Below are positions 12,251 through 61,647 of a DNA stretch of 64,000 nt, piece by piece. Every line of letters starts with the position of its first letter. Positions within the stretch are counted from its first letter, which is position 1. This DNA is from an uncultured Clostridia bacterium (GTDB lineage: Bacteria; Bacillota; Clostridia; TANB77; CAG-508), in NCBI GenBank assembly GCA_947589645.1, contig CANQCG010000001.1, positions 19,179-83,178 on the forward strand, read 5' to 3'. The notes under the pieces were generated by a model that was not told the DNA's origin, did no database searches, and saw only the letters and a list, made by a program, of their open reading frames with translations. The translations under genes and the position numbers were made by a program.

Positions 12251-12264
12251 TGGAGGAAACCAAA

Positions 12265-12882
12265 ATGAGAAATATTAGTATAAACCTAAAAAAGAAAGAA
12301 AATATCATAAAAATAGAAGAAAATGCAGAACAAAAAAATATAATTAATGAGTTGAATGGTAAGCTACCAAACTTAAAAAGATTGTATAAGGATGAAAAAA
12401 CGCCAATTAGGGTTACAGGAAAAGCATTAAAAAATAGTGAAATGGACGAAATAGAAAATCTTATAAAAAAATATTTAGATGTAGAAATTAGATTTGATTT
12501 ACCAAAAGAGTTAGGCTTATCAGGGATAGTAAAAACTTTTAATCAAACAATAAAAACTTCTGAAACTAGGTTCTATAAAGGTTCTATACGTTCAGGTAAA
12601 AAACTAGAAGCTGAGGGCAGCATAGTAGTTCTAGGAGATGTAAACTCAGGCGCAGAAATTGTGGCAACAGACAATATTGTAGTTTTAGGTTCCTTAAGAG
12701 GCTTAGCACATGCTGGGGCTAAAGGAAACAAAGAGGCAGTTGTATCAGCAGGTAGTTTTGATGCAGTTCAAATAAGGATTGCTAATATTATCAAAGAGAT
12801 AGATAGAGAAGAACAAGAAACACAAATAACACATGCTTATATACATGTGGTGGATGATAAAATAGTAATAGAAGAATGCTAA
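12265..12882 (+). CDS. minC: septum site-determining protein MinC
   Basis: The C-terminal beta-helix repeat is present (GSIRSGKKLEAEGSIVVLGDVNSGAEIVATDNIVVLGSLRGLAHAG). ATG 12265 is placed 7 nt after GTGGAGGA. The track start at 12250 is a GTG inside that RBS. Confidence 0.85.
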   Translation: MRNISINLKKKENIIKIEENAEQKNIINELNGKLPNLKRLYKDEKTPIRVTGKALKNSEMDEIENLIKKYLDVEIRFDLPKELGLSGIVKTFNQTIKTSETRFYKGSIRSGKKLEAEGSIVVLGDVNSGAEIVATDNIVVLGSLRGLAHAGAKGNKEAVVSAGSFDAVQIRIANIIKEIDREEQETQITHAYIHVVDDKIVIEEC

Positions 12883-13966: not shown

Positions 13967-13996
13967 TTATTATAAATAAATATGTTTGGAGGAAAA

Positions 13997-25238: not shown

Positions 25239-25291
25239 CAAATTATTGAGGAGTATTATAAATATCAATAAAAAATAATGGAGGAATAGTT

Positions 25292-30217: not shown

Positions 30218-30235
30218 AGGAAAGGAGGGAAAAAT

Positions 30236-33200: not shown

Positions 33201-35623
33201 TATCAACATTATCAAGATTTGATGAAGAACTTGAAAAATATATAAATATAACAGCCAATACTACTTCTGCAAACTATTTAATAGACCAAAAGTATAATGA
33301 ATTAAAATCAAAGGGACCTGTATCAACAATTGATAATATTAATATGGGAATAGTTGTAAGAGAGCAACCTAATATATCAATTACTAGTGATATACACAAT
33401 GTAAAAGTTGGTTTTAATGGATATCAATATACATATTTATATGATAATAGGCGAGACCATTATGAAAATGTAGATGATATTGATATAGGTGTTAAATTTG
33501 AACAAGATTATCCATTACAAAGATATACAAGAACTGTATATGCTTCTGATATTGAAGCAGCAATACAAGAAAATAAAGAGATAACAGTTTCAGTAACATA
33601 CAGAATAGGAATTTCTAACTTATCAAGACAATTAAGAATGTTGCCAAAAGAAATAATAAATTACTTTGATAGTAGGTATGATATAAGAACTGTAGGAATG
33701 GGCTTAAATGAAAAATATGAGGTAACCGATGCACTTGGTTATACAACGCCACAAGATGTTGAGGGCTTACCATATAAATCAACAGTAATAACCTTCAATC
33801 AATTATTATATGCAAAAGATGAGGCAGAAGGAGAACCTACTACAACAATAAAGAACATGTATATAACATTTGATATACAATGGGAAGCAATAAAAGATTT
33901 ACTAAATAATAATTCAACATATCATAATGCAACAGAAATATGTAGTTATACAACTTATTATGGAAGTTTAACGACTTATTCAGATGGACAACAATTTATG
34001 ACAGATCACAGTGTAGCAAATACTGTATATGCAGGTATTGATAAAATGTCACAACCAGGAAATATGACATTAAAATTAATAAATCACCCAGAAGAAGAAG
34101 GTACACAAATTCTAGATACATCTGATTATGAACTTGATACAGATTCAGCACCATCATTATTATTAGATGCAAATGGAGAAAGAACTATATCAGGAACAGT
34201 TTGGGAAGATGCAATTACTAATACTATTGATAACCAAAAACTAGGTAATGGTATATTTGAAGCTAGTGAAAAAACCGTAACAAATGTTACAGTAGAACTA
34301 CACAATATAAATAGTGATGGAACTATTGGAGATATAGCAAAATTCTCTGATGGATCACCAGCTACAGCAATTTCAGGAGAACAAGGTAATTACAAATTTG
34401 GTGGTTATAATGAAGAAACTAACAAACATGTCGGAATATTACCTGGTAGATATGTCATAAGATACATTTATAATAATGATTCTAAAGTTGTAGATAAAAA
34501 AATAAATGTTAATGAATACAAATCAACAATAATAGTATCAGATACAATTAAAAATGCATTTGAATCTGGAAATGAAAAATGGTATGCAATTAAAGATTCT
34601 ACTAGATATTCAGATGCAAGGGATAATATATATTTAAGACCTGAATATAACTCTAATATTGATAAAAACAATATAACAGTTAAAAATTCATCATATAGTG
34701 ACATATCATTAAGTGAAATGCAAGCTAATACACCAGTTATGGATATTGGGCTAGAGTTTACGGAAAGTAATGTAATAGATGCTATAGCAGAACAAACACA
34801 AGGTGGTCTTGAAAATGTAGATTTTGGTATAGTAGAAAGACCAGACATAGATATAACAGTTGAAAAGAAAATAACTTCATTAGAGATATTAGCTCAAAAT
34901 GGAACAGTAATTGTACCAAAAAATGATCCTTCAAATAAAGATGTTGTAATGAAATATGTAAGAACAGGTTTAAAAGGAATAGTACCAGTAGAAATGGATG
35001 TAAGTCTATTACAAGGTGCTAAGCTAAACTTAGATTACACTATTTCTATACAAAATAGTAGTGACAAAGATTATGAAGAACAAGAATACTATTATTATGG
35101 AACTGGAGGAAAGACTCTAAGAGTAACAAAAGTTCTAACATTAGTAGATTATCTTGATGAATCAATGACATTAGATGCTAATAATACAAGTTGGGAAGAA
35201 AGCACACCAGAATATTTATTAGAAAATGGACTAATAAGTAGTGACATATATGATTTGATGAAAGATTCAGGAAATGTTAATGTGTTAATAACACATGCAT
35301 TTGAAGAAGATGGTGTTGATGAAGTTAAATTATATACAACTAAATATTTAGCAGTATCAGAATCTATTAGGGAAACAAATGATGTTGAAATAGTAGAATT
35401 ATCAGGAGTGAGAAGCATAAAAGAATCAGTACCTGGAAACTATGACCCAACTAGATCATCAGTTACAATAACAGATGAACGTGATGACGATAAAGTAGAC
35501 TTTACAATTACTCCTCCAACTGGTACGAATGTAAATTATGCACCATATATAATAGCAACAACAGTAACATTAATAATACTAGTATTTGGAGTAGTCATTA
35601 TTAAAAAGAAAATGACAAAATAA
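30236..35623 (+). CDS. giant surface adhesin B2, a paralogue of B1. It has a thioester-domain-like N-terminus, prealbumin-fold repeats and a PPTG sorting signal.
   Basis: Cys87 is in NFFCAEQGQ and Gln165 in VFQHVIWQY. LPGIKFEIYDANNKL-type domains are present. The C-terminus is ITPPTGT followed by a hydrophobic stretch and KKKMTK. The central and C-terminal regions are collinear with B1 (for example GINAGCAPDNIELKLKDHESGDG versus GIDKMSQPGNMTLKLINHPEEEG). Confidence 0.85.
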   Translation: MNKSKKKYYLIVILVIALMIMAALINSVSSTNYDTGKDKNGNPYINSFDLSTWIIGRYAGINAFDTTTDGNTYAKGFQVVDNKNFFCAEQGQNWKNGSYQLVSKIVIHGSSIASSEYVGTQLKTKENDAAVTANRILTEIVKEAEESKNVRNRSISAYITEDVFQHVIWQYMSEWAGANFSYWGKNNDNKYDWISGIPYITQTSQNYDSQDYEHKEAREQGKAKLNEIKTKVANSKPDEKAQISVVNKKDVLLNSNANIEGENTILGPFKYSYSGTVTQLDIYYNSINNKATAQIGTFNGTTFKPIGNISNLPNNKEVYIKIPTKELSGKQNLSIHIKVASTTIGATTTVYIWRNEDAPAQNMIYVDQKPENSEAEISDDYKLRLTEQVSILKQNENKEALPGIKFEIYDANNKLVGTLTSEKDGKTNELTLQTNQVYQLREVSADIYGYRRRSIEKDNISITNGEIIEVRNGVANFKIKDSSVITIIDDKYIRDIEIAKTDKQNKKGIEDVSFVIRTNTTISGKEYAGFLSLYNSKGEFVPEVKGTVTINKNNVATDSNGIEYEVRYENMGTENLTFDKLPLEDLESAKITVFKTDSNGKITVKNLEVYSDLNATYNYTAYEISNPNYGYGAITNKSQSASTGSLVKGNGSISITNDRNLGNISVLKVDEQNKDITLANVGFVLENYTDTNKYAYIALYDTNGKLVSSITGTATINEKNVATNNEYRVEYKSFAGKSYAELSDDEKAQITTFVTDDKGKILINNLEKYSYIDGAQITYKLIEVSNPHAGFEASGAEFGDITIENGKTFEAIVPNKQKYINLSGYVWIEKTYGKGNSFDLVYTEKDESGKKIDIKLTGIYIKDESGKLMLNENYSIEGIPTKIEIKLRDKTTEEYVKNIPDDYDTNGKYTFINVETDKLKDYEVVFIYNGFYYTTITENINVDNGSKVKESEAERKTLNDKFGEVTNEGITSVDGKERYGVIYDKGTHVSTLSRFDEELEKYINITANTTSANYLIDQKYNELKSKGPVSTIDNINMGIVVREQPNISITSDIHNVKVGFNGYQYTYLYDNRRDHYENVDDIDIGVKFEQDYPLQRYTRTVYASDIEAAIQENKEITVSVTYRIGISNLSRQLRMLPKEIINYFDSRYDIRTVGMGLNEKYEVTDALGYTTPQDVEGLPYKSTVITFNQLLYAKDEAEGEPTTTIKNMYITFDIQWEAIKDLLNNNSTYHNATEICSYTTYYGSLTTYSDGQQFMTDHSVANTVYAGIDKMSQPGNMTLKLINHPEEEGTQILDTSDYELDTDSAPSLLLDANGERTISGTVWEDAITNTIDNQKLGNGIFEASEKTVTNVTVELHNINSDGTIGDIAKFSDGSPATAISGEQGNYKFGGYNEETNKHVGILPGRYVIRYIYNNDSKVVDKKINVNEYKSTIIVSDTIKNAFESGNEKWYAIKDSTRYSDARDNIYLRPEYNSNIDKNNITVKNSSYSDISLSEMQANTPVMDIGLEFTESNVIDAIAEQTQGGLENVDFGIVERPDIDITVEKKITSLEILAQNGTVIVPKNDPSNKDVVMKYVRTGLKGIVPVEMDVSLLQGAKLNLDYTISIQNSSDKDYEEQEYYYYGTGGKTLRVTKVLTLVDYLDESMTLDANNTSWEESTPEYLLENGLISSDIYDLMKDSGNVNVLITHAFEEDGVDEVKLYTTKYLAVSESIRETNDVEIVELSGVRSIKESVPGNYDPTRSSVTITDERDDDKVDFTITPPTGTNVNYAPYIIATTVTLIILVFGVVIIKKKMTK

Positions 35624-40009: not shown

Positions 40010-41239
40010 ATGGAGCTAAAGACAAAGTATCAATATACATATTTTTTACATCCTTTTATGGTAAAGGAGAATAGGTACTTAAGATATATACTAAAGTTAT
40101 TAAAAAATCCAAATTGTAAATTAAAAATATTCCAAAAAGAAAAAGATTTGGGAATATATACTTATTTTATTCCCAAAATTAGAAATTATATGTTTAGCAC
40201 ATTTACTTTTAGCAAAGCCAAAATAAAAAAATTTCAAGAGTTAAGTGTAGATACAAAGGCTGCTGTGCTTGCAAAAATGCCTTGTACAATGTTCGAATAT
40301 ACTTTTCCAAGAGATATTCAAGGTAAAGCAGATGGAGGCGAAGGAATATTTTTTACAATACAAAAAATAGATATAATTTGTTTTAATACAGGAATTTGCT
40401 TTCTAAGTATTAAAACTAACATTGAAAACAGTGAAAAATTTGCAGATGTATTAAATTTTAATTATAAATTTAGAAGCCTAACAGCTGAAGAACACTTAAA
40501 TAGCTATGATAATATAAGAATTCAAATAGATAAATTTGATGATGTTAAAATGTTAAAAACATTTGTTAAGGAAATAACAGGACAAAATGAGTTAGAAATA
40601 AAAAACCTTAATATAGATACCGAAAGATTCCTTACATATTCATATACTTGTATTGATCAAGAACATTGGAAAACAGAAGAAGACTTTAATAGCATTAAAC
40701 CTTTATTTGCAAAGTATATGAAGGTTTTGCCAAATGATGATAATACTTCGTATAATACTGATGAAAGCAAAGTTCTGACAAATTGGAATTATTCAAAATT
40801 GGGCATTACAAAAGCAGGCAGCACATTATTTACATCATCTGCAGACATGAACAACTATACAATTCTTCCACATGAATACGAGAATGAATACTTGTATACA
40901 TACATATTAGCCTTATATATGAAAATTTATATAAAATTAATCAATCTTGAATTAAAACAAGGAGTAGAAGTAAAAAAAGCAAGAAAAAAATTTATAGACT
41001 TTACTAAAAATTTGTGGATACAAGAAATTACAATTGACGAAATTGGGACATTATTTTATCATAACTTAAGAAATGTCTTAGAACTTGATAATTTATACAT
41101 AGAAACTAAAAATAAATATGATGTTTTATACAAAGAAATGAACATAGAGAAAAATACAACTGCAAACAAAGTTATAATTTTTATTTTATTAGTTTCACTA
41201 ATAATTAATATATTAAACTTTATTACTTTACTGGGATAA
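40010..41239 (+). CDS. hypothetical protein with a C-terminal TM helix
   Basis: A 409-aa ORF with a GGTGG RBS and no recognisable family. Confidence 0.45.
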   Translation: MELKTKYQYTYFLHPFMVKENRYLRYILKLLKNPNCKLKIFQKEKDLGIYTYFIPKIRNYMFSTFTFSKAKIKKFQELSVDTKAAVLAKMPCTMFEYTFPRDIQGKADGGEGIFFTIQKIDIICFNTGICFLSIKTNIENSEKFADVLNFNYKFRSLTAEEHLNSYDNIRIQIDKFDDVKMLKTFVKEITGQNELEIKNLNIDTERFLTYSYTCIDQEHWKTEEDFNSIKPLFAKYMKVLPNDDNTSYNTDESKVLTNWNYSKLGITKAGSTLFTSSADMNNYTILPHEYENEYLYTYILALYMKIYIKLINLELKQGVEVKKARKKFIDFTKNLWIQEITIDEIGTLFYHNLRNVLELDNLYIETKNKYDVLYKEMNIEKNTTANKVIIFILLVSLIINILNFITLLG

Positions 41240-43126: not shown

Positions 43127-44221
43127 TTAATCTTTAGATTCTATATGAGTGCCATTTTTTAATATGATATTTTTTAATTTAGTTATTAATAAAATAAATT
43201 TATTAGTTTTGTTTGCAGAAACAGCAGTTTCGATTTCACCATTTTCTAACATATTAGATTTATGCTCTAACGCACACATTTTTTCTATGTAATAGTTATC
43301 AAAAAAGAAGTAACCTTCATGTTTACAAATTATATTTTTAAAACTTTCTAATTTTCTTCTATAGTTATCTAAATCTTCTAGGTGGGTAATTCTAGAAAAT
43401 GATTTATCAAAATAACTAGAAATTATCAAATCTTGAGCTTTCATAAATATAGAAGTTATTTTTTCTTTATAATTATTGATTTTGTGAGTTATGCTTTTAC
43501 AAGCTTTGTCAGAAATATTATCTTCTTCTAAAGAATTTGTAAGTTTAGAAATCTTTTCTTCGTATTTTAAGATAGAGTCAATAGATTCTTGAATTTCTAA
43601 AAAATCTTTTTCTGAAGTAGCTTGGATAAATGTATTTTTAAAATTATCATTGCTATTAAATGTGCTTTCATACAAAACATCATAGCTAGTAACAAAGGCC
43701 ATTTCCTCAACGAGCTGGCATTCCATAGGATAATATGATGGACTAGAAGATTTAAACTCTATTCCATAATATTTAACAAAATCAGGTGCTATACCAATAA
43801 TTTTAGATGTCATTAATTGAACAGCAGCCTCATTTATTCCCATACCAATTGGAGCTAATGCATTAAACTTACAAAGTCCCATACGAACCAATTTATTTTG
43901 CTTAGTTTTGATTGCTTGCAAGTGGTGGATACATTCATGTATAGCGAATTCTTCTAAGTCTTCAAATTCAATTTTTTCATTGAAGTATATTGAAGAATTT
44001 TTATAAAAATAATTAGCTTCTGCAATTCCATCTGGTATAGAAGCTTTATACATATCTATTCTGGCTAATTTTATAAATAAATCTGTTTCATCAAAATTTA
44101 ATTGTGGAAAAGTTGCAACTATTTTTTTGGCAATGTTTCTAGCAATATTATTAACTACTAATGTATCTAATTTTGAAACAACTGTGATTCCATCTTTTCT
44201 TAAATCTGATTCGATACTCAT
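43127..44221 (-). CDS. hypothetical protein with an HExxH motif (putative zinc-metallopeptidase-like)
   Basis: A 364-aa ORF with an AAGGAG RBS. It has HECIHHLQ but no signal peptide. Family not recognised. Confidence 0.45.
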   Translation of the reverse strand: MSIESDLRKDGITVVSKLDTLVVNNIARNIAKKIVATFPQLNFDETDLFIKLARIDMYKASIPDGIAEANYFYKNSSIYFNEKIEFEDLEEFAIHECIHHLQAIKTKQNKLVRMGLCKFNALAPIGMGINEAAVQLMTSKIIGIAPDFVKYYGIEFKSSSPSYYPMECQLVEEMAFVTSYDVLYESTFNSNDNFKNTFIQATSEKDFLEIQESIDSILKYEEKISKLTNSLEEDNISDKACKSITHKINNYKEKITSIFMKAQDLIISSYFDKSFSRITHLEDLDNYRRKLESFKNIICKHEGYFFFDNYYIEKMCALEHKSNMLENGEIETAVSANKTNKFILLITKLKNIILKNGTHIESKD

Positions 44222-47645: not shown

Positions 47646-48803
47646 TCATTTTTCATTAACAAATATTTTATTAAAAATTGTTTTTACAAATTCATTATCA
47701 TTCATTTTATTTTCTAAATACTTGTTGAAATTATCTTCATTTATCTCATTACTTTTTATATCATTATAATTAGGATATAAGTTTTCAATTTGTTTTCTAT
47801 TTACTTTATATGAATTACTACTAAAATTAAAAGTAATATCCTGAACATTATCAATTAAAGAAAATATAGATACAGTATTATACAATAAACATTTTTCTAA
47901 ATATTGATTTTCATTTATATACCAGTCTGTAATATGATAATCAATAGTTAATCCTAAATTTTCTGAATCTATTTCAAACACATATCCATACTCTGAAAGA
48001 GGCAAACTATCTATTAAATGGCTATCATTACTATTATTTCCTACATATTGATTTTTAAATTTTATAATGTTGTCAATTCCTGATTTATCTCTGTCAAATG
48101 GAGTTACAGGAACAGTATCTTCTGTATATATTTTCTTTGTATCAACTATATAATATTCATTTTTTGTATTTCTATTTATTCTATAGACATTACAAAGTGG
48201 AGCTTTATAAATAATCATATTTTCTGTTGTTGTTGTTAAGTATGAAAATCTTGGTGCTACATTATTCAATTTTACATTTATATAGTCTATTCCTATTAAT
48301 AATGCTACCCCTAGTATGAAATATCCTAAATTTAAAAATAGTCTTTTTATATATGATTTTTTCTTGTTAAATTTAGAAAAACCTATTAAAGATATAATTA
48401 ATCCAACTATAGAATAAATTGAACCCCAACTGCTTTCTGAAGGAAATAAGACAAATGCAGTAAAAGTAAGTCCAAGTCCAAAAAACATTAAAATTTCTGC
48501 AATTACTTTATTTTTTTCATACACTTTTTTATTTGTATAATCTATTGTACTAATAATGTTTTCTTCCAATTTTTCTTGATAATGCTCTTTATCTACTTTT
48601 TCTCCACTAATTAAATCATTTAATGTAACACCTAATTCTTCACTTAATGGTTTTAGCAAAGAAATATCTGGCATATAATTTCCATTTTCCCATCTTGAAA
48701 TTGTTTTTGATGTTACTCCTAGTTTTTCTGCCAAGCCTTCTTGTGTTAATTTTTTTTCTTTTCTTTTTTCCGCTATAAATTTTCCAATTTTAATAATATC
48801 CAT
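47646..48803 (-). CDS. membrane-bound XRE-family HTH regulator (N-terminal HTH, 2 TM helices, C-terminal extracytoplasmic domain)
   Basis: LTQEGLAEKLGVTSKTISRWENGNYMPDISLLKPLSEELGV is an XRE helix-turn-helix. Two hydrophobic helices (ILMFFGLGLTFTAFVLF, IVGLIISLIGF) are followed by a ~230-aa domain. GGAGG RBS. Confidence 0.7.
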   Translation of the reverse strand: MDIIKIGKFIAEKRKEKKLTQEGLAEKLGVTSKTISRWENGNYMPDISLLKPLSEELGVTLNDLISGEKVDKEHYQEKLEENIISTIDYTNKKVYEKNKVIAEILMFFGLGLTFTAFVLFPSESSWGSIYSIVGLIISLIGFSKFNKKKSYIKRLFLNLGYFILGVALLIGIDYINVKLNNVAPRFSYLTTTTENMIIYKAPLCNVYRINRNTKNEYYIVDTKKIYTEDTVPVTPFDRDKSGIDNIIKFKNQYVGNNSNDSHLIDSLPLSEYGYVFEIDSENLGLTIDYHITDWYINENQYLEKCLLYNTVSIFSLIDNVQDITFNFSSNSYKVNRKQIENLYPNYNDIKSNEINEDNFNKYLENKMNDNEFVKTIFNKIFVNEK

Positions 48804-48990
48804 AATTTTTTACTCCTTCCATATTAAAAATAACAAAAAAAATAAAAAATTAACACCCCACAAATAGCGAATTGCTATTTTTTTACTAGACGCAAATAGT
48901 GAGTGCTGTTTAATAGTAATTTACAATAGTTTTAAACTATATAAATATTTAATATCTCGAAAAACAAAGTATCTATTTTATATAAAGGTA

Positions 48991-50017
48991 TTAAAAATTA
49001 ATTAGTTTATTTATATTTTCTATAAAATCTATTCCTTCTATCTTATTAATCCCAAAGCATTTTTTACCTAAGTCTTTGAGTGATGCTCCACAATGATAAA
49101 GCTCTTTATTATCTATAATAATAAATCTATCATGGAATTTATCTGTCTTTACTATTTTTAATGCTCCATATTGTTCATTAAATTTCTTAATATCTAGCTT
49201 TGTTATATTACAATTTTGTGAAGTTAAAATAATTGCTTGCACACCTCTGTTTTTCTTTTGTAGCATTTTAAGAATAGTATCATCTATATAATTATCTATT
49301 ATTACTATTTTACTTTGTGCTGTTTTTATAATATCAATTACTAGTTCATAGGCATCATATATTTGTCCCTTAAAAAATATTTTTTGCTTAAATTCTTGTT
49401 CTTTATTCTTTTGTAATTCATTAAATACTTGATTGAATTTATTATCATGTTCCAATAATCTATATTCAACATTTGTTAATCTTTCAAAAACTTGTCCATT
49501 TATGGAAATAAATTTTCTCATTTCAACAAATGCATTCATTATGTTTATACTCACTTGAACTGCGATGTCACTTCTTAATAGACCTGAAAGCATTGCTATA
49601 CCTTGCTCTGTAAAAACATATGGCAAATATTTACGGTGTCTGCCTCTACCCTCATTTGCGTTTAAGGTCACAAATTGTGACCTTAAAAAATTTATTTCAG
49701 TTTCTTCATTATTGCTGTTCTCTTTTTTCTCATGCAGTCGCAAATTGCGACCGCATATCTTCGTTTTCCAATAAGGTCGCAGTTTGCGACCTTAAACATA
49801 AAAATTCATATTCTGCTAATTGAAAGCAAAAATTTTGTGGAAATCTTTCAATATTTCTTTTTACTGTTTGATTTATTTTTTTCGTTTCATAATGATATAA
49901 CATTGCTACATCACTATCTAGCATAACTTGTTTTCCTCTAATGCAATAAATTAAATTCTTAATATCTATTGTTTCATATTTTACTAAATTTAAGTCATTA
50001 TTAGTGTGATTATTCAT
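48991..50017 (-). pseudogene. ORF6N-domain gene, disrupted: the N-terminal part (49730..50017) and the C-terminal part (48991..49743) lie in different frames
   Basis: The upstream frame has IRGKQVMLDSDVAMLYHYETKKINQTVKRNIERFPQNFCFQLAEYEF (ORF6N N-terminal half) and ends RSQFATA*. The downstream frame continues LRSQFVTLNANEGRGRHRKYLPYVFTEQGIAMLSGLLRS (ORF6N second half) and a C-terminal domain. Three palindromic copies of the LRSQFVT-coding motif sit at the junction. Confidence 0.55.
49662..49795. repeat. three copies of a palindromic element (TTAAGGTCACAAATTGTGACCTTAA; GTCGCAAATTGCGAC; TAAGGTCGCAGTTTGCGACCTTAA)
   Basis: Seen directly at 49662..49686, 49737..49751 and 49772..49795. Each encodes an (L)RSQ(F/T)(V/A)T peptide on the minus strand. 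Confidence 0.7.
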
Positions 50018-52050: not shown

Positions 52051-52207
52051 TATATTATGAGTGTAAAAAAACACGGTGGGTTCATAAACTAGTTTCCGTA
52101 AAGAAATTTAAAACACAAAAAAACACATGAAAAATAGTTCAAATAAGCATATTGACTAAGTATAAATATATAGTAAAATATTAATTAGTAAAAAAGGAGT
52201 AATTAGT

Positions 52208-55200
52208 ATGAAAAAACAAACGGTATTCAAAAAATTATTATCAAGCATAATAGTAGCAATTATTGTCTTGGGAAACTTTAGTAGCTATAGATTAATATCT
52301 GATGCTGCATTAATAACTACTGAAGGTGATGGACCATTATATTTATCATTATCACCAACTAACGAACATGATAATGGATATGCTATTGCAGTAGACCAAG
52401 GAGAAATTATTTGGAACATTGTATCACATAGTAATGAAGAAGGCTCAAACTCAACATTTGCCTCAAACTTATATTGTATAAAGGCTCATGATGGTGGAAC
52501 TTGGTCAGGAGGAGACTCAATAGGAACACCTTCAAGTGTAATTAAGTACAATAAAAGATATAATGTACCACTAGGTGAAGAATTAATAAAAATTAATGGG
52601 GATGCAATTGCATTACAAGGAAAATATAAAAATGAATTACTTTGGTTAATAGACCACTTATTTGTAGAAGGTGAATCAGATTTAATACAATTTTTGGCCC
52701 AAGCTGATATATTCCCAGATCCAGATGAAGGAGAAGGTTATTATTACTTTAAGTCTTATAACCATGAAGATTATGGAGGAAATTATAATTCTGATGCGTA
52801 CCAAGAAACAGCCACAGAAGAGGATATATTAGCAATACAACAAGCAGCTATTTGGTATTTTACAAACTATGGGCTAAATTCTCAGCATTTTAACCAAATA
52901 CATCATGGAGCAGAGTGGCTTGAAATTGCAACAAAACAACAGTTAGAACAAACTCCAAATAAATATACTTTACTTTCTAATTACCCTAATCCAAAAGAAC
53001 ACGAAGGTAGAGCAATGCATTGCAATGCTATATACAATTACTTAATAGATGAAGCTACTAAAGTAGCTGCTGAATATAATAAAAGAGGAGAAACATATCA
53101 ACTAAAAAATTCAACAGCAACATTATGGCTATCTGCAGATGAAAATGGAAATATTAAACAAGAACAACCAGTTATAGAAGTACATAAAACTCCAAAACAA
53201 TTCGATTTAGCATTAAGAAAAGCAATAGTATCAGTTGAAAATGGCACAGTTATAAATGAAACTGGAGAAGATGCCAAAAGAAATATCGAAATAGATGAAA
53301 CAACATTAAATAATGGAGATGGAGATACAAAAACAGACACAGCAACATACAAACATAGAAAAGACCCAGTACTTGTAGAAAAAGATGATATAGTAACTTA
53401 TTCAATAACAATATACAATGAGGGAGAGCAAGATGGATATGCATCAGAAATAATAGACCAATTACCATTAGGTTTAAGATTACTAGATAATCAACCTCAA
53501 ACGGTAACCTCAACTTTAAAAAATGAATATAAGGTAGAATATATGGCATCAGAGCATAAGATAAAAATTACTAATCAAGAAACGCCAAAAACAATACCAG
53601 CATATAATGGAGTAACATTATCATCAGATTCAATACAAATAAAATGCAAAGTAGAAACAGAACCAGAAGATCTAGATTCTACTGAAAAAATTACTCTAAC
53701 TAATATAGCATATATCTCAAAAGAATATAATTCAGAAACAGGGCAAACTATTGAAAAACAGCCTGACTTAGATAGAGATTCAGAGCCAGGTACAGCACCA
53801 ACTAAAACTTATACTGATTTAAGAACCACTGGAAACGACAAAGGTTATATAGGAAATAGTGAAAATCAAAGCTTAAGATTATCAGACCCAAATGCATATT
53901 TCAAAGGTGAACAAGACGATGATGATTTTGAAAAATTAGTAATATTACCTAAAGACACATATAATTTACAAATAATAAAAGTAGATAGCAAAGATGAAGG
54001 CAAAAAGTTAGCAGGGGCAAAATTTACCATTACAGTAAATGGAGAAGATCCACAAACTTTAACAACAGATTCAGATGGTTTAATAACATTAAATGGTTTG
54101 AAATTATCAACAAAAGGAACACAAACAATAGTTATAGATGAAATTCAAGCACCAAATGGTTATAATAAAATATTAACCGAAGCAATAACAATAGAAGTAA
54201 CAGTAGACTTAGTAGATGGAAAATATACAGTAACAAGTGCTGTACAAAAAAATTCTACTTCTACAGGAGAAAAAGTTACATTAATTAATGGAACAATAAA
54301 AACAATAAAAGTAACAATACCAAATGAAAAGATAACAGGTTCATATAACATAAAAGTTGTAAAAGAGGACTTAAAAGGAAACAAATTAGCAGGAGCTAAA
54401 TTTAAAATAGAGCAAATAGATGTGGCAAATGGTAATGTACTTAAAACATATGATAATCTAACTACAACAGACGACGGAATAGTAGAAACAGGAAATATCG
54501 AAATACCTGCAGAAGGAACATATAGATATAAAATTACAGAGTTACAAGCACCAAACCATTATATTAATAAAGGTGTACCTACAATAATAGATGTAACAGC
54601 AACTATAGTAGGTGGAGCATATCAGGTTACATATAAAGAAGTATCTGGAGAAGAAAAAGCAATAGTAAAAGAAGGAAATACTATTCAAATAACAATAGAT
54701 AATACACCAATTTTTGATTTAAGTTTAAGAAAATATATAAGAGAAGTTGACGGAATTCCAGTAGAAAATAGCAGAGTACCACGCATTGATACAACAAAAT
54801 TACAAGAGGTAACAGATACAACAGCAGAATATAAACATAGAAAAGATGCTGTTTTAGTAGAAAATGGAAGTGTTGTAACATATAACATAAGTATTTATAA
54901 CGAAGGCTACATGGACGGAATTGCAAGCGTAATAAAAGACCAATTACCAACAGGTCTAGTACTAGATTTAATAAGTTTACAATCTGAAACAGTACAAGGA
55001 AAATTGCAATATTACGTAACAACCTCAAAAGGTAATAAATACATAGTAACTTATGATGAAAGTACAAATTTAGTAACATTTACATTAGATACTAACACAA
55101 CAGCTAAAAACTTAAAAGCTTACGATGATGGAAATACTTTAGATTCAGATACAATCGCAATCAAATGCATAGTAAATCAAGTAGCAGATACACAAAAAAA

Positions 55201-58108
55201 TATATATTTAACAAATATAGCATATATATATGAAGCAAAAGATGAGCAAGGAACCATAATAAAAGATCAAAAAGGAAAAGACAGAGATTCAGAACCATAT
55301 ACACATCCAGGTGAAACAGCAGATGATTTAAAGAAAGTTGGAGATGACAAAGAGGAGCAAGAAGGTTATATAGGAAATACTGATAACGAAGATTTAGAAC
55401 AAAAAGATCCTGATTCATACTTTAAAGGTGAACAAGATGACGATGACTTTGAAAAATTAGTAATTGTACCAAAAACATTTGATTTAAAACTAATAAAATT
55501 CATAGCAGCTGTAAATGGCGAATCAACTGGAAACAGAGTATTAAGTGTAGATACATCAAATTTAGGAAACGGAGAAAATGGAACCGAAACAACAGCTAAA
55601 TATATACTAGAGAAAAAACCAGTAGGAGTTAAAGCAGGAGATTTTGTAACATACACAATAAGAGTTTACAACGAAGGTGATTATGACGGATATGCTACAG
55701 AAATTTCAGAGGATATACCACAAGGATTAGAATTTATAGTAGTAACAGACGGAAATATACTTTACTCTTGGGATGGAAAGACACAAACTGATATTACAGA
55801 TCAAATTAAAGATTCAGATATGTATGAAGAAATAATTAGAGTAAACTCAAATTGGGGTTCAGATTTTAAATCTACAATAATTACAACTAAAGCATTAAGC
55901 GAAGATTTAATAAAAGGTTTTGGACAAAAAGATGTACAATATGCTGATAGCGAAAACAAAATAGACTACAAAGAAATACAAGTAATATTTAGAGTAAAAG
56001 ATGATGTAGAACCTAATGTTACAATAAGAAATGAAGCAGCAATATCAGAAGATAAAGCTGTACAAAATAATCAAGAAGTAGACATAGACGACAGAGATTC
56101 AACACCTGGAAATACAGATGACACATGGAAAAAAGAAGACTCTGACAAACATTATGATAAAGAAGAAAAATGGCCTATATATGAAGAAGATGATGAAGAT
56201 TATGATAATATTATAACTAAATCATTTGACTTAAGTTTAAGAAAGCAAATTGTAAAAATAAATGATGCAATTTATACAAACAGATTTGCAAAATTAGATG
56301 AAAAAGGCGAATATGATGATACATTATATGATTATTATGATGTATATGCACACACACCAAAAGTAAAAGCAGGAGATATAGTTACTTATTCAATAAAAGT
56401 ATACAATGAAGGCGAAATAGATGGATATGCTTCATTAATAGTAGACGAATTACCATCTGGCTTAGAATTTTATTCAAGCATATATAATGATATAGATTAT
56501 GGTTGGACATTAGTAGAAGGAAGCAAAAACTTATATCAAACAGATTATCTATCATACGAAAATGATGTAAAAAGAGGAACTATAGGAACAAAAGATTCAA
56601 CATTATTAAAAGCTTATACAGGAGAAGGAGAGGCTTCATACCAAGAAATCTTTATAGTATGTAAGGTAAAAGATGATGTAACAAAGAACGACTCATTACT
56701 AAATGTTGCACAAATAGCAGATGATAGTGATGAAAATGGAAAACCAATAAAAGATAAAGATTCAGAGCCAGGTAATAAAGACGACGAGAAACAATGGAAA
56801 GATGAAGACGACCTAGATATAGAAAACTTAGAGTTACAAGAATTCGATTTAGCATTAAGAAAATTCATAACTAAAGTAGAAAATGGAGAAAACGTAAAAG
56901 ATGTAACAACAAGAATTCCACAAGTAAGTTATGATAAAGATAAGCAACAATTAGTATATACACATCCAAAAGATGCTTTAGTAGTACATGTAGGAGATAC
57001 AGTAATATATACAATAAGAGTATATAATGAAGGTGACATAGATGGATATGCTGCAGAAGTTAAAGATGATTTACCAGAATATCTAGAATATTTACCAGAA
57101 CATAATACAAACAAAAAATATGAATGGGTAATGTATGATAAAGACGGAAATGTTACAGAAAATGTAGCAGACGCAGTATGCATAAGAACCACATATTTAG
57201 CAAAGGGAAATGGAGCAGAGAAAGAACAAGAAAATGCAAACTTATTAAAAGCATTTGATCCAAATGCAGAAATAAGTGATAATAACCCAGATTATAGAGA
57301 CATAGAAGTAGCTTTCAAAGTAAAAGACCCAAATAGTAGTGAATATGAAATAGTAAACTTTGCAGAAATATCAGAAGACACAGACAAAGATGGAGAGCCA
57401 ATAAAAGACAAAGACTCAGATACAGATAACGGAGATGGAGAGCCAAAAGAAGACGACGAAGATATTGAAAAAGTAAAAGTTGAGTATTTCGATTTAAGCT
57501 TACTAAAATATGTAACAAAAGTATTAGTAAATGAAAACGGTGTAGAGAGAACAATGGAAACAGGCAATACCGGAAATGACGAAACCGACATTATACCACA
57601 TGTACAAATAAACAAGAAAAACATAGATAAAACAGTAGTAAAATTTGTATATACAATAAAAATAACGAATGAAGGACAAATAGCAGGTGAGGCTACAGAA
57701 ATAACAGACTATGTACCAGCAGGTTTAAGATTTGTGGCAGAAGACAATGAATTGTGGACAGATGAAGGAAATAATATAATATCAACAAGGCAATTAGAAG
57801 GTACTATATTACAGCCAGGAGAAAGTGCAGAAGTAGAAGTTGTATTAAGATGGATAAATGGTGATGATAATTTAGGACCAAAAACTAACGTAGCAGAAAT
57901 ATCAGAAGACCATAATGATGAAGATGTACCAGATAAAGACTCAACACCAGATAATGAAGAACCAGGAGAAGACGATATAGATGATGCAACAGTACTATTA
58001 TCAGTAAATCAAGGTGGGGGAATCCAAAGCATATATACAAACTTAATAGTAACTTTCTTAGTAATAATATTAGTTGGAGGAATTCTAATTAAGAGATTTG
58101 TATTATAA
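52208..58108 (+). CDS. giant surface adhesin C. It has a signal peptide, an N-terminal thioester domain (TED) signature, six DUF11 repeats each ending in a KDKDSEPGN-type motif, two SpaA/CnaB-type domains and a C-terminal SVNQGGG motif followed by a TM segment and a basic tail.
   Basis: Cys90 is in NLYCIKAHDG and Gln211/212 in LAIQQAAIWYFTNYG. DUF11 blocks look like FDLALRKAIVSV...KDDIVTYSITIYNEGEQDGYASEIIDQLPLGLRLL. Prealbumin blocks look like KLAGAKFTITVNGEDPQTLTTDSDGLITLNGL. The C-terminus is ...VLLSVNQGGGIQSIYTNLIVTFLVIILVGGILIKRFVL. AAGGAG RBS. Confidence 0.85.
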   Translation: MKKQTVFKKLLSSIIVAIIVLGNFSSYRLISDAALITTEGDGPLYLSLSPTNEHDNGYAIAVDQGEIIWNIVSHSNEEGSNSTFASNLYCIKAHDGGTWSGGDSIGTPSSVIKYNKRYNVPLGEELIKINGDAIALQGKYKNELLWLIDHLFVEGESDLIQFLAQADIFPDPDEGEGYYYFKSYNHEDYGGNYNSDAYQETATEEDILAIQQAAIWYFTNYGLNSQHFNQIHHGAEWLEIATKQQLEQTPNKYTLLSNYPNPKEHEGRAMHCNAIYNYLIDEATKVAAEYNKRGETYQLKNSTATLWLSADENGNIKQEQPVIEVHKTPKQFDLALRKAIVSVENGTVINETGEDAKRNIEIDETTLNNGDGDTKTDTATYKHRKDPVLVEKDDIVTYSITIYNEGEQDGYASEIIDQLPLGLRLLDNQPQTVTSTLKNEYKVEYMASEHKIKITNQETPKTIPAYNGVTLSSDSIQIKCKVETEPEDLDSTEKITLTNIAYISKEYNSETGQTIEKQPDLDRDSEPGTAPTKTYTDLRTTGNDKGYIGNSENQSLRLSDPNAYFKGEQDDDDFEKLVILPKDTYNLQIIKVDSKDEGKKLAGAKFTITVNGEDPQTLTTDSDGLITLNGLKLSTKGTQTIVIDEIQAPNGYNKILTEAITIEVTVDLVDGKYTVTSAVQKNSTSTGEKVTLINGTIKTIKVTIPNEKITGSYNIKVVKEDLKGNKLAGAKFKIEQIDVANGNVLKTYDNLTTTDDGIVETGNIEIPAEGTYRYKITELQAPNHYINKGVPTIIDVTATIVGGAYQVTYKEVSGEEKAIVKEGNTIQITIDNTPIFDLSLRKYIREVDGIPVENSRVPRIDTTKLQEVTDTTAEYKHRKDAVLVENGSVVTYNISIYNEGYMDGIASVIKDQLPTGLVLDLISLQSETVQGKLQYYVTTSKGNKYIVTYDESTNLVTFTLDTNTTAKNLKAYDDGNTLDSDTIAIKCIVNQVADTQKNIYLTNIAYIYEAKDEQGTIIKDQKGKDRDSEPYTHPGETADDLKKVGDDKEEQEGYIGNTDNEDLEQKDPDSYFKGEQDDDDFEKLVIVPKTFDLKLIKFIAAVNGESTGNRVLSVDTSNLGNGENGTETTAKYILEKKPVGVKAGDFVTYTIRVYNEGDYDGYATEISEDIPQGLEFIVVTDGNILYSWDGKTQTDITDQIKDSDMYEEIIRVNSNWGSDFKSTIITTKALSEDLIKGFGQKDVQYADSENKIDYKEIQVIFRVKDDVEPNVTIRNEAAISEDKAVQNNQEVDIDDRDSTPGNTDDTWKKEDSDKHYDKEEKWPIYEEDDEDYDNIITKSFDLSLRKQIVKINDAIYTNRFAKLDEKGEYDDTLYDYYDVYAHTPKVKAGDIVTYSIKVYNEGEIDGYASLIVDELPSGLEFYSSIYNDIDYGWTLVEGSKNLYQTDYLSYENDVKRGTIGTKDSTLLKAYTGEGEASYQEIFIVCKVKDDVTKNDSLLNVAQIADDSDENGKPIKDKDSEPGNKDDEKQWKDEDDLDIENLELQEFDLALRKFITKVENGENVKDVTTRIPQVSYDKDKQQLVYTHPKDALVVHVGDTVIYTIRVYNEGDIDGYAAEVKDDLPEYLEYLPEHNTNKKYEWVMYDKDGNVTENVADAVCIRTTYLAKGNGAEKEQENANLLKAFDPNAEISDNNPDYRDIEVAFKVKDPNSSEYEIVNFAEISEDTDKDGEPIKDKDSDTDNGDGEPKEDDEDIEKVKVEYFDLSLLKYVTKVLVNENGVERTMETGNTGNDETDIIPHVQINKKNIDKTVVKFVYTIKITNEGQIAGEATEITDYVPAGLRFVAEDNELWTDEGNNIISTRQLEGTILQPGESAEVEVVLRWINGDDNLGPKTNVAEISEDHNDEDVPDKDSTPDNEEPGEDDIDDATVLLSVNQGGGIQSIYTNLIVTFLVIILVGGILIKRFVL

Positions 58109-58246: not shown

Positions 58247-58300
58247 CAATTTCAGTAAAATGTAAGAGGTGAAAGTACATGAATCAAATTCTTGATACAA

Positions 58301-58993
58301 ATGAAAACAAGCGGGAAAAAGCATAGAAAAATGGTAGATTCTCAAAAAATAATTATATTTTTTGCAATTTTTATTGTTATATTTGCAATATGTTTAATTG
58401 GAATAGGTGCCAATTTACTTATGAAGGTACGTAGTAATGAGCCTAAAAACGAAGGCAATATTACACAAGAACCTAATACTCCACAAGAAAATCCAACTGA
58501 ACCAAACATAAACATAACATTTGAAGGTGGAGAGCCAGGACAAGTAAAAGTAATTGTAGCAAGCGATAAAGATATACAAAATATAGATTATTGGTGGGAT
58601 GATGAAGCTCCAACAACAGTACAACCAAATGATAAAAAATACGAAATGGTAATTTCTTCTAAACAAGGAACTCATAAATTAAATGTAGAAGTTACAGATA
58701 TAGATGGCAACAAAAAAACGTCAGACCAGCTTGTTATAGGTGATTCAGTACCTGAACTACAACTAGGAGTAGATGGAGTAAGTAATTATGTAATTAAAGC
58801 AACTGATGACGAACAAATTAAAAAGATAGTAATAGTGCTAAATGGAGAAACTCAAGAAATCGAAGTTAATGAGAAAGAATTTGAATATAAAGTGCCAATA
58901 CCAGAAGGAGACAGTGTAATAGAAGTTACTGCTTATAATTTAAATGGATTATCAGTTAATAAAAAAGGTAAAGTAAATAACTTTAGACGTTAA
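58301..58993 (+). CDS. hypothetical membrane-anchored protein with two beta-sandwich-like repeats. The start is ambiguous (ATG 58301 or ATG 58331; the track shows TTG 58292).
   Basis: Its N-terminal TM segment (IIIFFAIFIVIFAICLIGIGANLL) is followed by a ~190-aa extracytoplasmic region. The strong RBS upstream instead serves a 15-codon uORF (58279..58326, MNQILDTNENKREKA) in another frame. Confidence 0.55.
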   Translation: MKTSGKKHRKMVDSQKIIIFFAIFIVIFAICLIGIGANLLMKVRSNEPKNEGNITQEPNTPQENPTEPNINITFEGGEPGQVKVIVASDKDIQNIDYWWDDEAPTTVQPNDKKYEMVISSKQGTHKLNVEVTDIDGNKKTSDQLVIGDSVPELQLGVDGVSNYVIKATDDEQIKKIVIVLNGETQEIEVNEKEFEYKVPIPEGDSVIEVTAYNLNGLSVNKKGKVNNFRR

Positions 58994-60785: not shown

Positions 60786-60814
60786 TTGACTTTTTGGCAC
60801 TTTGAGTATATTAT
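60786..60814 (+). promoter_or_regulatory. sigma-A-type promoter for minD-minE-rodA (TTGACT - 17 nt - TATTAT)
   Basis: The -35 is at 60786..60791 and the -10 at 60809..60814, 40 nt upstream of the minD ATG. Confidence 0.5.
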
Positions 60815-60855
60815 TATATAGAAAAAGTGTTGAAAAAATCCTAAGGAGGGAAATT

Positions 60856-61647
60856 ATGGGAGAAGTTATAGTTATTACATCAGGAAAAGGCGGAGTAGGA
60901 AAAACAACAACAACAGCAAATTTAGGGTCAAGCTTAGCACTTGAAGGAAAAAAAGTCGTATTAATAGATACAGATATAGGTCTTCGTAATTTAGATGTAG
61001 TTATGGGACTTGAAAACAGAATAGTATACGACATAGTAGACGTTGTTGAAGGTAAATGTAAATTAAGACAAGCTCTTATAAAAGATAAAAGGTTCAAAGA
61101 GCTTTATTTATTACCAGCCGCACAAACACGAGATAAAAGCGCAGTAAATGAGGAACAAATGAGAGAACTTACAAGTAAATTAAAAGAAGAGTTTGATTAC
61201 ATACTTGTAGATTGCCCAGCAGGAATTGAACAAGGGTTTAAAAATGCTATAGCAGGAGCAAATCGCGCAATAGTAGTAACTACAGCGGAAATATCATCAA
61301 TTAGAGATGCTGACAGAATAATAGGATTGCTAGAATCTTCAGATATAAAAAATCCAGAATTAGTTGTAAATAGAATCAGACCTAATATGGTAAAAAAGGG
61401 TGAAATGATGGATGTTGATGACATAGTTGATTTACTATCTATAGATTTAATAGGAGTTATACCAGATGACGAATATATAATAACCCAGACTAATAAAGGT
61501 GAACCAGTAATTCAAAACAAAAAAGCCCCATCAGGAAAGGCATACTTAGAAATAGCCAAAAGAGTTTTAGGTGAAAATATTGAAGTTAGTATACCTGGAA
61601 GAGAAAAAGGTTTTTTCTCAAAAATTAAAAGTATATTCAAAAAATAA
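60856..61647 (+). CDS. minD: septum site-determining ATPase MinD
   Basis: MGEVIVITSGKGGVGKTT is the deviant Walker A, with a C-terminal amphipathic helix (KGFFSKIKSIFKK). ATG 60856 follows AAGGAGGG. The track start is further upstream. Confidence 0.9.
   Translation: MGEVIVITSGKGGVGKTTTTANLGSSLALEGKKVVLIDTDIGLRNLDVVMGLENRIVYDIVDVVEGKCKLRQALIKDKRFKELYLLPAAQTRDKSAVNEEQMRELTSKLKEEFDYILVDCPAGIEQGFKNAIAGANRAIVVTTAEISSIRDADRIIGLLESSDIKNPELVVNRIRPNMVKKGEMMDVDDIVDLLSIDLIGVIPDDEYIITQTNKGEPVIQNKKAPSGKAYLEIAKRVLGENIEVSIPGREKGFFSKIKSIFKK

Follow-up and report, generated by a model that had tools for sequence, protein, structure and literature searches.

Gene C lies on the forward strand of the window (the whole 64,000-nucleotide stretch of DNA that was analysed) and encodes a very large, probably exported protein, here called protein C. 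The gene and the features of its 5' end and head region are as follows:

52194..52200, forward strand: ribosome-binding site AAAGGAG of gene C, 7 nt 5' of the ATG
52208..58108, forward strand: gene C, an open reading frame of 1966 aa with a thioester domain (TED), six CLIPPER repeats, two SpaA domains and a C-terminal membrane anchor
52208..52309, forward strand: probable Sec signal peptide, residues 1-34 (KK..KK, hydrophobic core, ...SDAA), called from the sequence alone
52310..53200, forward strand: predicted TED, residues 35-331, Class I-like (without a beta-sandwich insert between alpha3 and strand P)
52469..52483, forward strand: C-motif LYCIK, of the form [YFL]C-Phi-zeta; Cys90 (TGT, 52475-52477) is the predicted thioester cysteine
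52838..52864, forward strand: T-motif QQAAIWYFT (TQxx-Phi-W type) on helix alpha2; Gln212 (CAA, 52841-52843) and Trp216 (52853-52855)
53162..53182, forward strand: Q-motif EQPVIEV; Gln320 (53165-53167), where the last strand begins, is the predicted thioester-forming Gln

A scan for promoters and terminators around gene C gave nothing better than shuffled versions of this AT-rich DNA. The gene is flanked by cell-wall and cell-division genes and is syntenic in related MAGs L001-L004. The surrounding 48 kb, described in the first-pass annotation as an adhesin island, does not merit that name, since spoIIE, tatD, udg, M16 peptidases and dacA occupy the same interval. Compared with L001 and L002, minD is 96% identical, the protein C stalk 68% and the TED 44-45%. 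By these identities the head is evolving faster than either the stalk or the neighbouring genes, a pattern that fits changing target specificity.

On the modelled fold, residues 35-331 are a real but divergent TED. The absence of a TED-like fold in structure prediction had been named beforehand as the observation that would count against this assignment. When the prediction was run, the head (residues 35-331) modelled as a beta-barrel with a three-helix bundle similar to solved TEDs, and the assignment stands. Foldseek returned weak matches between the model and TEDs (E 0.09-0.12), and a single-sequence AlphaFold prediction of residues 28-345 was uninformative (pLDDT 34.6). Protein C itself falls below the curated thresholds, scoring 17.6-19.9 bits against a cutoff of 22 for PF08341 (TED) and 14.8 against 30.4 bits for NCBIfam TIGR03934 (TQXA); Pfam TED matches are present in 24 of 28 family members (E<=0.01), the best at 7.6e-13. 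Querying a word-indexed protein library with one sequence produced one match, and recovery of the family required exhaustive search of representatives: among 1.84 billion of these, phmmer found 156 matches at E<=1e-3, nearly all containing YC[ILV][KR] and QQxA[IL]WYFTN. One relative carries the NCBI name 'Cys-Gln thioester bond-forming surface protein'. Searched against PDB sequences, the N-terminus gave no match with phmmer, and the 28-sequence family profile aligned solely over the T-motif region of Cpa and FNE; hence the Q-motif was not mappable by sequence alignment.

TEDs possess three motifs, and the glutamine that enters the bond is that of the last beta-strand (PMC4450167, PMC6194298). 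In solved structures, the Gln and Trp of TQxx-Phi-W only hydrogen-bond the backbone of the Cys, and the bond can form without them (PMC4450167, PMC6194298). Cys and both Gln are the only residues conserved throughout published alignments (PMC4450167). In protein C, the sequence NLYCIKAHDG begins at residue 87; its Cys90 (model C63) ends model strand 61-63 and is the invariant C-motif Cys of the family (28/28 sequences), which upholds its earlier designation as the TED cysteine. The positions reported for Cys90 and Gln212 (52475-52477 and 52841-52843) are likewise correct. The stretch AIQQAAIWYFTNYG begins at residue 209, and Gln212 (model Q185), Trp216 (model W189) and model N193 are all invariant in the 28-sequence alignment, the first two lying within model helix 177-192. 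The invariance of Cys90, Gln212 and Trp216 goes beyond chance. Gln320 (model Q293) is followed directly by model strand 295-300. Its motif, xQP[VIL][VIM], occurs in 78 of the 80 relatives with enough sequence (Pro at +1 in 78/79) and is kept in the orthologues of protein C. Gln212 had been put forward as the partner of Cys90; given its helical motif, non-bonding in solved TEDs, it is probably not. We predict instead, from the model and by analogy, that Cys90 bonds with Gln320 at the canonical last-strand site. The choice between Gln320 and Gln212 matters in practice, since any mutagenesis or protein-ligation use depends on the right partner.

Beyond the head, the stalk is assembled from the following units:

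53201..53791, forward strand: CLIPPER/DUF11 repeat 1, residues 332-528 (Lys338, Asp417, Asn499)
53792..53953, forward strand: linker 1, residues 529-582, ...YIGN...YFKGEQDDDDFEKLVILPK, with an acidic terminal strand
53954..54712, forward strand: two SpaA/CnaB-type prealbumin domains, residues 583-835 (Pfam SpaA E 1.9e-21, 2 stretches)
54713..55300, forward strand: CLIPPER/DUF11 repeat 2, residues 836-1031 (Lys842, Asp911, Asn1003)
55301..55477, forward strand: linker 2, residues 1032-1090, a second copy YIGN...YFKGEQDDDDFEKLVIVPK (DNA repeat D10)
55478..56110, forward strand: CLIPPER/DUF11 repeat 3, residues 1091-1301 (Lys1097, Glu1168-Asp1169, Asn1275)
56225..56773, forward strand: CLIPPER/DUF11 repeat 4, residues 1340-1522 (Lys1346, Asp1413, Asn1499)
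56843..57427, forward strand: CLIPPER/DUF11 repeat 5, residues 1546-1740 (Lys1552, Asp1620, Asn1717)
57488..57952, forward strand: CLIPPER/DUF11 repeat 6, residues 1761-1915 (Lys1767, Asp1834, Asn1894)

The current name of DUF11 is CLIPPER, an isopeptide domain with crystal structure 9IFR (PMC12617251). The six DUF11 units originally counted in protein C are borne out by two profiles, Pfam PF01345 (6 stretches, E 5e-32, 111 bits against a cutoff of 24.6) and NCBIfam TIGR01451 (6 stretches, 124.6 bits). Across the repeats, the Lys of FDLxLxK (K7) and the Asn of NxAxI (N134) are invariant (6/6), and the Asp of DxLPxGL is present in five of six, with Glu-Asp in repeat 3. A six-repeat profile searched against the PDB aligned the DxLP acid with Asp748 of 9IFR, over the Asp region only and with a weak E of 0.19; repeat 6 alone gave no PDB match. 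We infer that the conserved Lys and Asn are equivalent to Lys715 and Asn806 of 9IFR. The motif xNxAxISEDxDxxGxPIKDKDSEPGN, said to close every unit, survives as a full string only in repeats 4 and 5, and what all six share is the shorter core N-x-A-x-I ... D-x-D-S ... D-D-x-D. The related suggestion of an intramolecular bond within KDKDSEPGN loses ground, as its Asn is missing from repeats 1 and 2; an isopeptide bond between the FDLxLxK Lys and the NxAxI Asn, as in the CLIPPER triad, appears more likely. The PGN Asn of DKDSEPGN was rejected as isopeptide Asn on this count.

The likeness to 9IFR extends to profile membership, the putatively equivalent Lys and Asn, the acid weakly aligned to Asp748 and the tandem arrangement in a fibrillar-adhesin stalk. 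In contrast to the ~100-120 aa of 9IFR, however, the repeats of protein C span 155-211 aa, with a ~35-aa insert after strand A, long middle inserts and an invariant D-x-D-S ... DD-x-D acidic tail. Furthermore, 9IFR derives from a Gram-negative adhesin, whereas the organism here is of Gram-positive type.

The prealbumin domains noted previously are indeed present, as two copies at residues 583-835. The pair belongs to the PF17802 profile, and pattern matching yields putative triads at Lys591/Glu645/Asn706 and Lys719/Glu778/Asn832. The pair is absent from the L001 and L002 orthologues, and by this comparison is a lineage-specific insertion. The linker YFKGEQDDDDFEKLVI[LV]PK does occur twice, at residues 564 and 1071, as first described; both copies sit inside a duplicated module of ~250 aa that is 47% identical (E 4e-60).

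The C-terminus comprises two elements:

57965..58021, forward strand: C-terminal motif GEDDIDDATVLLSVNQGGG, family consensus EDDIDDAPVxLS[IV]xTG
58022..58105, forward strand: hydrophobic transmembrane segment, residues 1939-1961, with basic tail KRFVL

Protein C thus ends in ...LLSVNQGGG, the transmembrane segment and KRFVL, with no xPxTG or LPXTG motif found at its C-terminus. Its end aligns to those of A1 (E 1e-23) and A2 (E 6e-28), in agreement with the earlier view of an A-type terminus without PPTG; TPPTG is present in B1 and B2. Across the family, the end module runs from EDDIDDAPVxLS[IV]xTG through a transmembrane helix to LIKK[YF]V[LI]. In protein C and its orthologues the motif takes the variant form ...ATVLLSVNQGGG, and in A1 and A2 it reads LxSIQTG. 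Motif, transmembrane segment and KK tail, again without xPxTG, close 54 of 76 long relatives, and C-terminal tails searched against Pfam and NCBIfam gave no meaningful match. Despite this common module, the N-termini of A1 and A2 are unrelated. It is tempting to speculate that the module is an undescribed tripartite sorting signal, through which a dedicated enzyme would attach CLIPPER-stalk adhesins to the envelope in parallel to the sortase TPPTG of B1 and B2, although we regard this as rather unlikely.

We consider it probable that protein C, from an uncultured, low-GC gut member of the Clostridia, is a giant fibrillar surface adhesin of the thioester-isopeptide (TIE) class, in which a divergent TED forms the tip of a stalk of cross-linkable Ig-like domains. 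As such it is an already known type of protein, and the known mechanism is unchanged. Following export by its putative Sec signal peptide, protein C would fold with Cys90 in a barrel strand and Gln320 in the last one, and the two are predicted to join in an internal Cys-Gln thioester, releasing NH3. In the helical QQAAIW, Gln212 and Trp216, equivalent in topology and motif to their counterparts in solved TEDs, are predicted to pack against the thioester and not to form it. By analogy with the SfbI-fibrinogen pair, a target nucleophile (usually the amine of a Lys) could then attack the thioester, which would leave the target joined covalently to Gln320. The head would be carried on Ig-like domains, six of the CLIPPER/DUF11 type and two of the SpaA/CnaB type; in each, a putative Lys/acid/Asn triad is expected to provide a stabilising intramolecular isopeptide bond. 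Speculatively, the stalk may gain stiffness, perhaps through Ca2+, from the invariant acidic D-x-D-S and DD-x-D clusters where domains meet. Retention at the cell would fall to the C-terminal transmembrane helix and basic tail and not to an LPXTG sortase signal.

The target need not be a host protein. Other candidates, if on balance unlikely, are a different bacterium, a mating partner or a polymer of dietary or mucus origin; such an adhesin would depart from the one outlined above in its target only. The family, as sampled here, is confined to MAGs of uncultured gut Clostridia from humans, rabbits, chickens and deer, and its 313 loci in species-representative genomes often include several paralogues per genome, both of which suit a non-host target. 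There is also a published precedent, a Class II TED adhesin reported to be needed for efficient conjugation in Bacillus subtilis (PMC8092201). However, the locus of gene C, with its cell-wall and cell-division neighbours, offers no pointer to conjugation.

That the head keeps a TED-like fold without a thioester, binding non-covalently or capping the stalk in the manner of a periscope or steric-regulator protein, seems to us improbable. The scores below the Pfam and NCBIfam thresholds would be compatible with such a loss, as would the size of the domain. Class I TEDs of TIE proteins (SfbI-TED 5A0L, CpTIE-TED 5A0G, PnTIE-TED 5A0N, Cpa 2XI9, FNE 5DCQ), to which the TED of protein C is 9-17% identical, measure 175-215 aa, against ~297 aa here; the ~90 additional residues include low-confidence inserts, and model residues 139-176 and 198-234 are extra relative to these structures. 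Moreover, the Q-motif deviates from the published Phi-Q-zeta-Phi-Phi in having Pro at the zeta position. Nevertheless, Cys and both Gln are conserved across the family although identity between its members is otherwise only 20-50%, which implies selection on the chemistry.

Most improbable of all is the original reading of a Cys90-Gln212 thioester in a recent hybrid, put together by local shuffling of modules, DUF11 from the A type and TED and prealbumin from the B type, inside a 48-kb adhesin island: both residues are indeed invariant, DUF11 units and C-terminal anchor are common to C, A1 and A2, SpaA domains occur in C as in B2 and the SpaA pair is an insertion missing in orthologues, but Gln212 sits on a helix in a dispensable motif while a second conserved Gln holds the canonical last-strand position, TED followed directly by CLIPPER/DUF11 is the family norm (67/79 members), gene C is syntenic in L001-L004, housekeeping genes share the interval, and no DNA repeat was found linking gene C to any A or B gene; the A and B products are ~26% and ~22% identical to protein C, respectively, as befits family-level homology.

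Three TED proteins had been counted in the interval. Protein C is supported as one by fold prediction; B1 and B2 are candidates on motifs only, and tests of them by Pfam, NCBIfam, hhalign against the 28-sequence family alignment (probability <1%), homologue search and PDB profile search were all negative.

Thioester adhesins bind covalently to their targets, and work on them has, to our knowledge, dealt almost entirely with Gram-positive pathogens. The family of protein C, from uncultured gut Clostridia, is large and evolves fast. Curated profiles mostly miss this family, so its members are likely annotated merely as DUF11 proteins. Machine learning and AlphaFold have revealed divergent TED clusters that Pfam misses (Monzon and Bateman 2022, PMC9210967). 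Set against Class I TIE proteins, in which the T-motif begins with T, the protein C family opens this motif with Q or E and has a Q-motif of the form xQP-Phi-Phi; and whereas Class I TIE stalks consist of CnaB or ester domains, that of protein C is mainly CLIPPER and lacks LPXTG.

Class II TEDs of TIE proteins (BaTIE 6FWV, EfmTIE86 6FWY, SaTIE 6FX6) differ in bearing a ~75-residue beta-sandwich between alpha3 and strand P (slipknot). Protein C has none, its model leaving ~8 residues between helix 235-266 and strand 275-281. The Q-motif accordingly lies 45 aa from the alpha3 start in protein C, as against 120-157 aa in insert-bearing relatives, in which the insert would be a beta-sandwich. The occurrence within one family of members with and without an insert at the Class II position suggests that the split between Class I and Class II is evolutionarily labile.

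Protein C, the giant surface protein encoded by gene C, has the predicted structure and the motifs of the thioester domain (TED) family, yet scores under the curated profile cutoffs (Pfam TED, 17.6 bits where 22 is required; NCBIfam TQXA, likewise sub-threshold). All the features that the first-pass annotation listed for the gene were found: Cys90 (codon 52475-52477, fixed by NLYCIKAHDG), Gln212 (codon 52841-52843, fixed by AIQQAAIWYFTNYG), six DUF11 stretches (Pfam, E 5e-32; six TIGR01451 repeats in NCBIfam) and the linker YFKGEQDDDDFEKLVI[LV]PK, present at residues 564 and 1071.

52194-52200, + strand: ribosome-binding site AAAGGAG, upstream of gene C
52208..58108, + strand: gene C ORF, 1966 aa
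Residues 583-835 of protein C: two SpaA/CnaB (prealbumin-type) domains, E 1.9e-21

Searching 1.84 billion representatives with residues 28-345 (phmmer) returned 156 matches at E<=1e-3, nearly all carrying YC[ILV][KR] ~80-100 residues into the protein and QQxA[IL]WYFTN ~110-130 residues further on. Cys90, Tyr114, Gln212, Trp216 and Asn220 are invariant columns of a 28-sequence TED-family alignment (20-48% identity to protein C), 24 members of which are Pfam TED matches at E<=0.01, the strongest at 7.6e-13; one relative bears the NCBI name "Cys-Gln thioester bond-forming surface protein". The TED call also survived structure prediction, the refuting check originally set for it: AlphaFold2 returned pLDDT 86.1 and pTM 0.89 from the alignment, and pLDDT 34.6 from the single sequence. 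Divergent TED families missed by Pfam have previously been described (PMC9210967). In its mode of action, protein C is predicted from sequence and model to be a TIE-type covalent adhesin.

The identity of the bond-forming glutamine required correction, which is one useful outcome of this work. TEDs are defined by three motifs (Walden et al. 2015, PMC4450167; Miller et al. 2018, PMC6194298). The strand-borne [YFL]C-Phi-zeta motif supplies the bond cysteine, while the Gln and Trp of TQxx-Phi-W, on helix alpha2, hydrogen-bond to the Cys backbone and are dispensable for bond formation (PMC4450167, PMC6194298). The third, Phi-Q-zeta-Phi-Phi, carries the bond glutamine, which in solved TEDs is on the last strand. 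By alignment the T-motif glutamine of Cpa is residue 512, whereas the published bond is Cys426-Gln575. Gln212 had been proposed as the partner of Cys90; in the TED model (protein C numbering minus 27), QQAAIW is a helical T-motif within helix 177-192. After a long helix (235-266) come strands 275-281 and 295-300, with Gln320 (model residue 293, EQPVIEV) at the start of the last. The motif xQP[VIL][VIM]x[IV]x[KR] follows alpha3 in 78 of the 80 family members with enough sequence, and proline directly follows its glutamine in 78/79; this search pattern was devised within the present analysis, with chance matches roughly estimated at ~0.1 per 200 residues. Orthologues of protein C at two related-genome loci, L001 and L002, retain YCIK, QQA[VA][LI]W and EQPVIEVHK. 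Because of the published role of the T-motif, the position of Gln320 at the last model strand and the retention of the Q-motif across the family, we assign the predicted thioester, on topology and conservation, to Cys90-Gln320, with Gln212 and Trp216 in a supporting role.

As modelled, the protein C domain is Class I-like, because only ~8 residues separate alpha3 from the next strand. The same short gap occurs in 33/80 relatives, and 45/80 carry a ~95-aa insert (NYIVGPI...DFYISVP) exactly where the beta-sandwich of Class II TEDs sits; we infer that this insert, which protein C lacks, is itself a beta-sandwich.

The DUF11 domain of the stalk has been renamed CLIPPER, and its crystal structure, 9IFR, contains a Lys715-Asn806 isopeptide bond with Asp748 catalytic; the TED is among the domains of example architectures in a supplementary figure of the CLIPPER survey (PMC12617251). 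All six repeats of protein C retain the FDLxLxK lysine and the NxAxI asparagine. The DxLPxGL acid is present in five, with Glu-Asp in repeat 3, and aligns at E 0.19 with the LNDTLGQGL aspartate of 9IFR, identified as Asp748 by counting residues along the chain. A 26-residue end motif had been ascribed to every repeat; it is complete in repeats 4 and 5 only, and what is invariant in all six is the core FDLxLxK ... YxIxxxNEG ... NxAxI ... DxDS ... DDxD. The ...PGN asparagine is a poor isopeptide candidate, since repeats 1 and 2 lack it. The D-x-D-S and DD-x-D clusters, invariant at the repeat junctions, may bind cations. Prealbumin domains, as previously claimed, are present: the two SpaA/CnaB domains, each with a putative Lys/Glu/Asn triad located by pattern. 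The proposed linker-based duplication also holds: repeats 1 and 2, each taken with its linker, share 47% identity (E 4e-60), on sequence a true internal duplication, and an old one because the orthologues too have six FDLxLxK starts.

An A-type C-terminus in place of PPTG had rightly been recognised. The xPxTG motif is absent from the C-terminus of protein C, which ends in GEDDIDDATVLLSVNQGGG, a hydrophobic segment and KRFVL, akin to the LxSIQTG, TM segment and NKK of the A1 and A2 giants; B1 and B2 carry sortase-type TPPTG. Among long relatives, 54/76 end in ...EDDIDDAPVxLS[IV]xTG, a TM segment and LIKK[YF]V[LI], of which SVNQGGG is the variant in protein C and its orthologues.

57965-58105: C-terminal module of protein C
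~18850-18988: C-terminal module of A1
~30080-30217: C-terminal module of A2

No Pfam or NCBIfam model matches this tail, which in sequence resembles a sorting signal. This unmodelled motif, common to the C family, A1 and A2, is the most novel thread of the analysis. A1 and A2 also contain a Pro/Asp-rich PDDPDNPPVDP repeat tract (17735-17908 and 29054-29194).

The window (28% G+C) contains a split mre/min cell-shape cluster, with ~48 kb between minC and minD holding five giant surface-protein genes and others.

7.7-12.9 kb: mreB-mreC-mreD-PBP-minC (minC, 12250-12882)
13971-25019: unit A1-B1
25263-35623: unit A2-B2
60.8-63.3 kb: minD-minE-rodA (minD, 60802-61647)

The interval comprises the A1-B1-A2-B2 giants, spoIIE, a WG-repeat protein, tatD, udg, two M16 peptidases, an HTH protein, an ORF6N protein and dacA; Pfam gave nothing for the ORFs at 40010-41239 and 43127-44221. 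The HTH_3/DUF4825 and ORF6N-domain genes (47646-49743, - strand), flanked by the M16 peptidases and dacA, may have been left behind by a mobile element.

Scanning genomes for the C-type TED gave 313 loci, several per genome in some cases; the 77 distinct loci kept are all in Clostridia or Bacillota assemblies from gut or faeces, nearly all of which carry an uncultured or MAG label. The dacA-TED-...-minD-minE-rodA segment is conserved in related MAGs: L001 and L002 share the order dacA(-), TED giant, ~230-aa membrane Ig-like protein, GGDEF response regulator, amidase, minD, minE and rodA, and two further loci, L003 and L004, likewise have dacA(-) upstream of the TED gene.

L001, 1830-6926: protein C orthologue, 1698 aa
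L002, 9210-14372: protein C orthologue, 1720 aa

By these comparisons gene C is resident and orthologous, and its head is evolving fast, because identity to the window falls from 96% (minD) through 80-91% (rodA, amidase, GGDEF regulator) and 68% (C stalk) to 44-45% (C TED). Its sole real module change, judged by sequence, is the SpaA pair (253 aa; window 53954-54712), missing from both orthologues; at 22% identity, recent copying from a B gene is rejected as its source.

These data bear on the claim that gene C is a local A/B hybrid formed by domain shuffling, whose rejection is a second useful correction. A TED followed directly by CLIPPER is standard (67/79 family members), the gene is syntenic, and no DNA repeats join it to A1, A2, B1 or B2; protein C is ~26% identical to A and ~22% to B. 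A1-B1 and A2-B2 are themselves one two-gene unit duplicated in tandem (70-80% nucleotide identity, spacing 10.7-11.3 kb).

Of the three TED proteins originally proposed, protein C is borne out; B1 and B2 offer motif resemblance only.

18975-20300: B1 C-motif IYC152AQ, T-motif YQHAIW at residue 247, Q-motif TQQTMAYID at residue 432
30236-31340: B2 C-motif FFC87AE, T-motif FQHVIW at residue 164, Q-motif PAQNMIYVD at residue 359

Both have the three motif types in TED order and a TILGPF...FY[VI][RK]IP stretch like the Class II-position insert of protein C relatives; profile, homologue and PDB searches for B1 and B2 as TEDs were all negative. Three TED proteins in the window are thus plausible from sequence but not established.

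Directly 3' of gene C lies a 233-aa single-pass membrane protein (58292-58993) with weak Ig-like matches (Big_13, Glucodextran_B). It occupies the same position in L001 and L002 (55-58% identity), has a match 3' of the L003 TED gene (42%) and is a possible partner for the adhesin.
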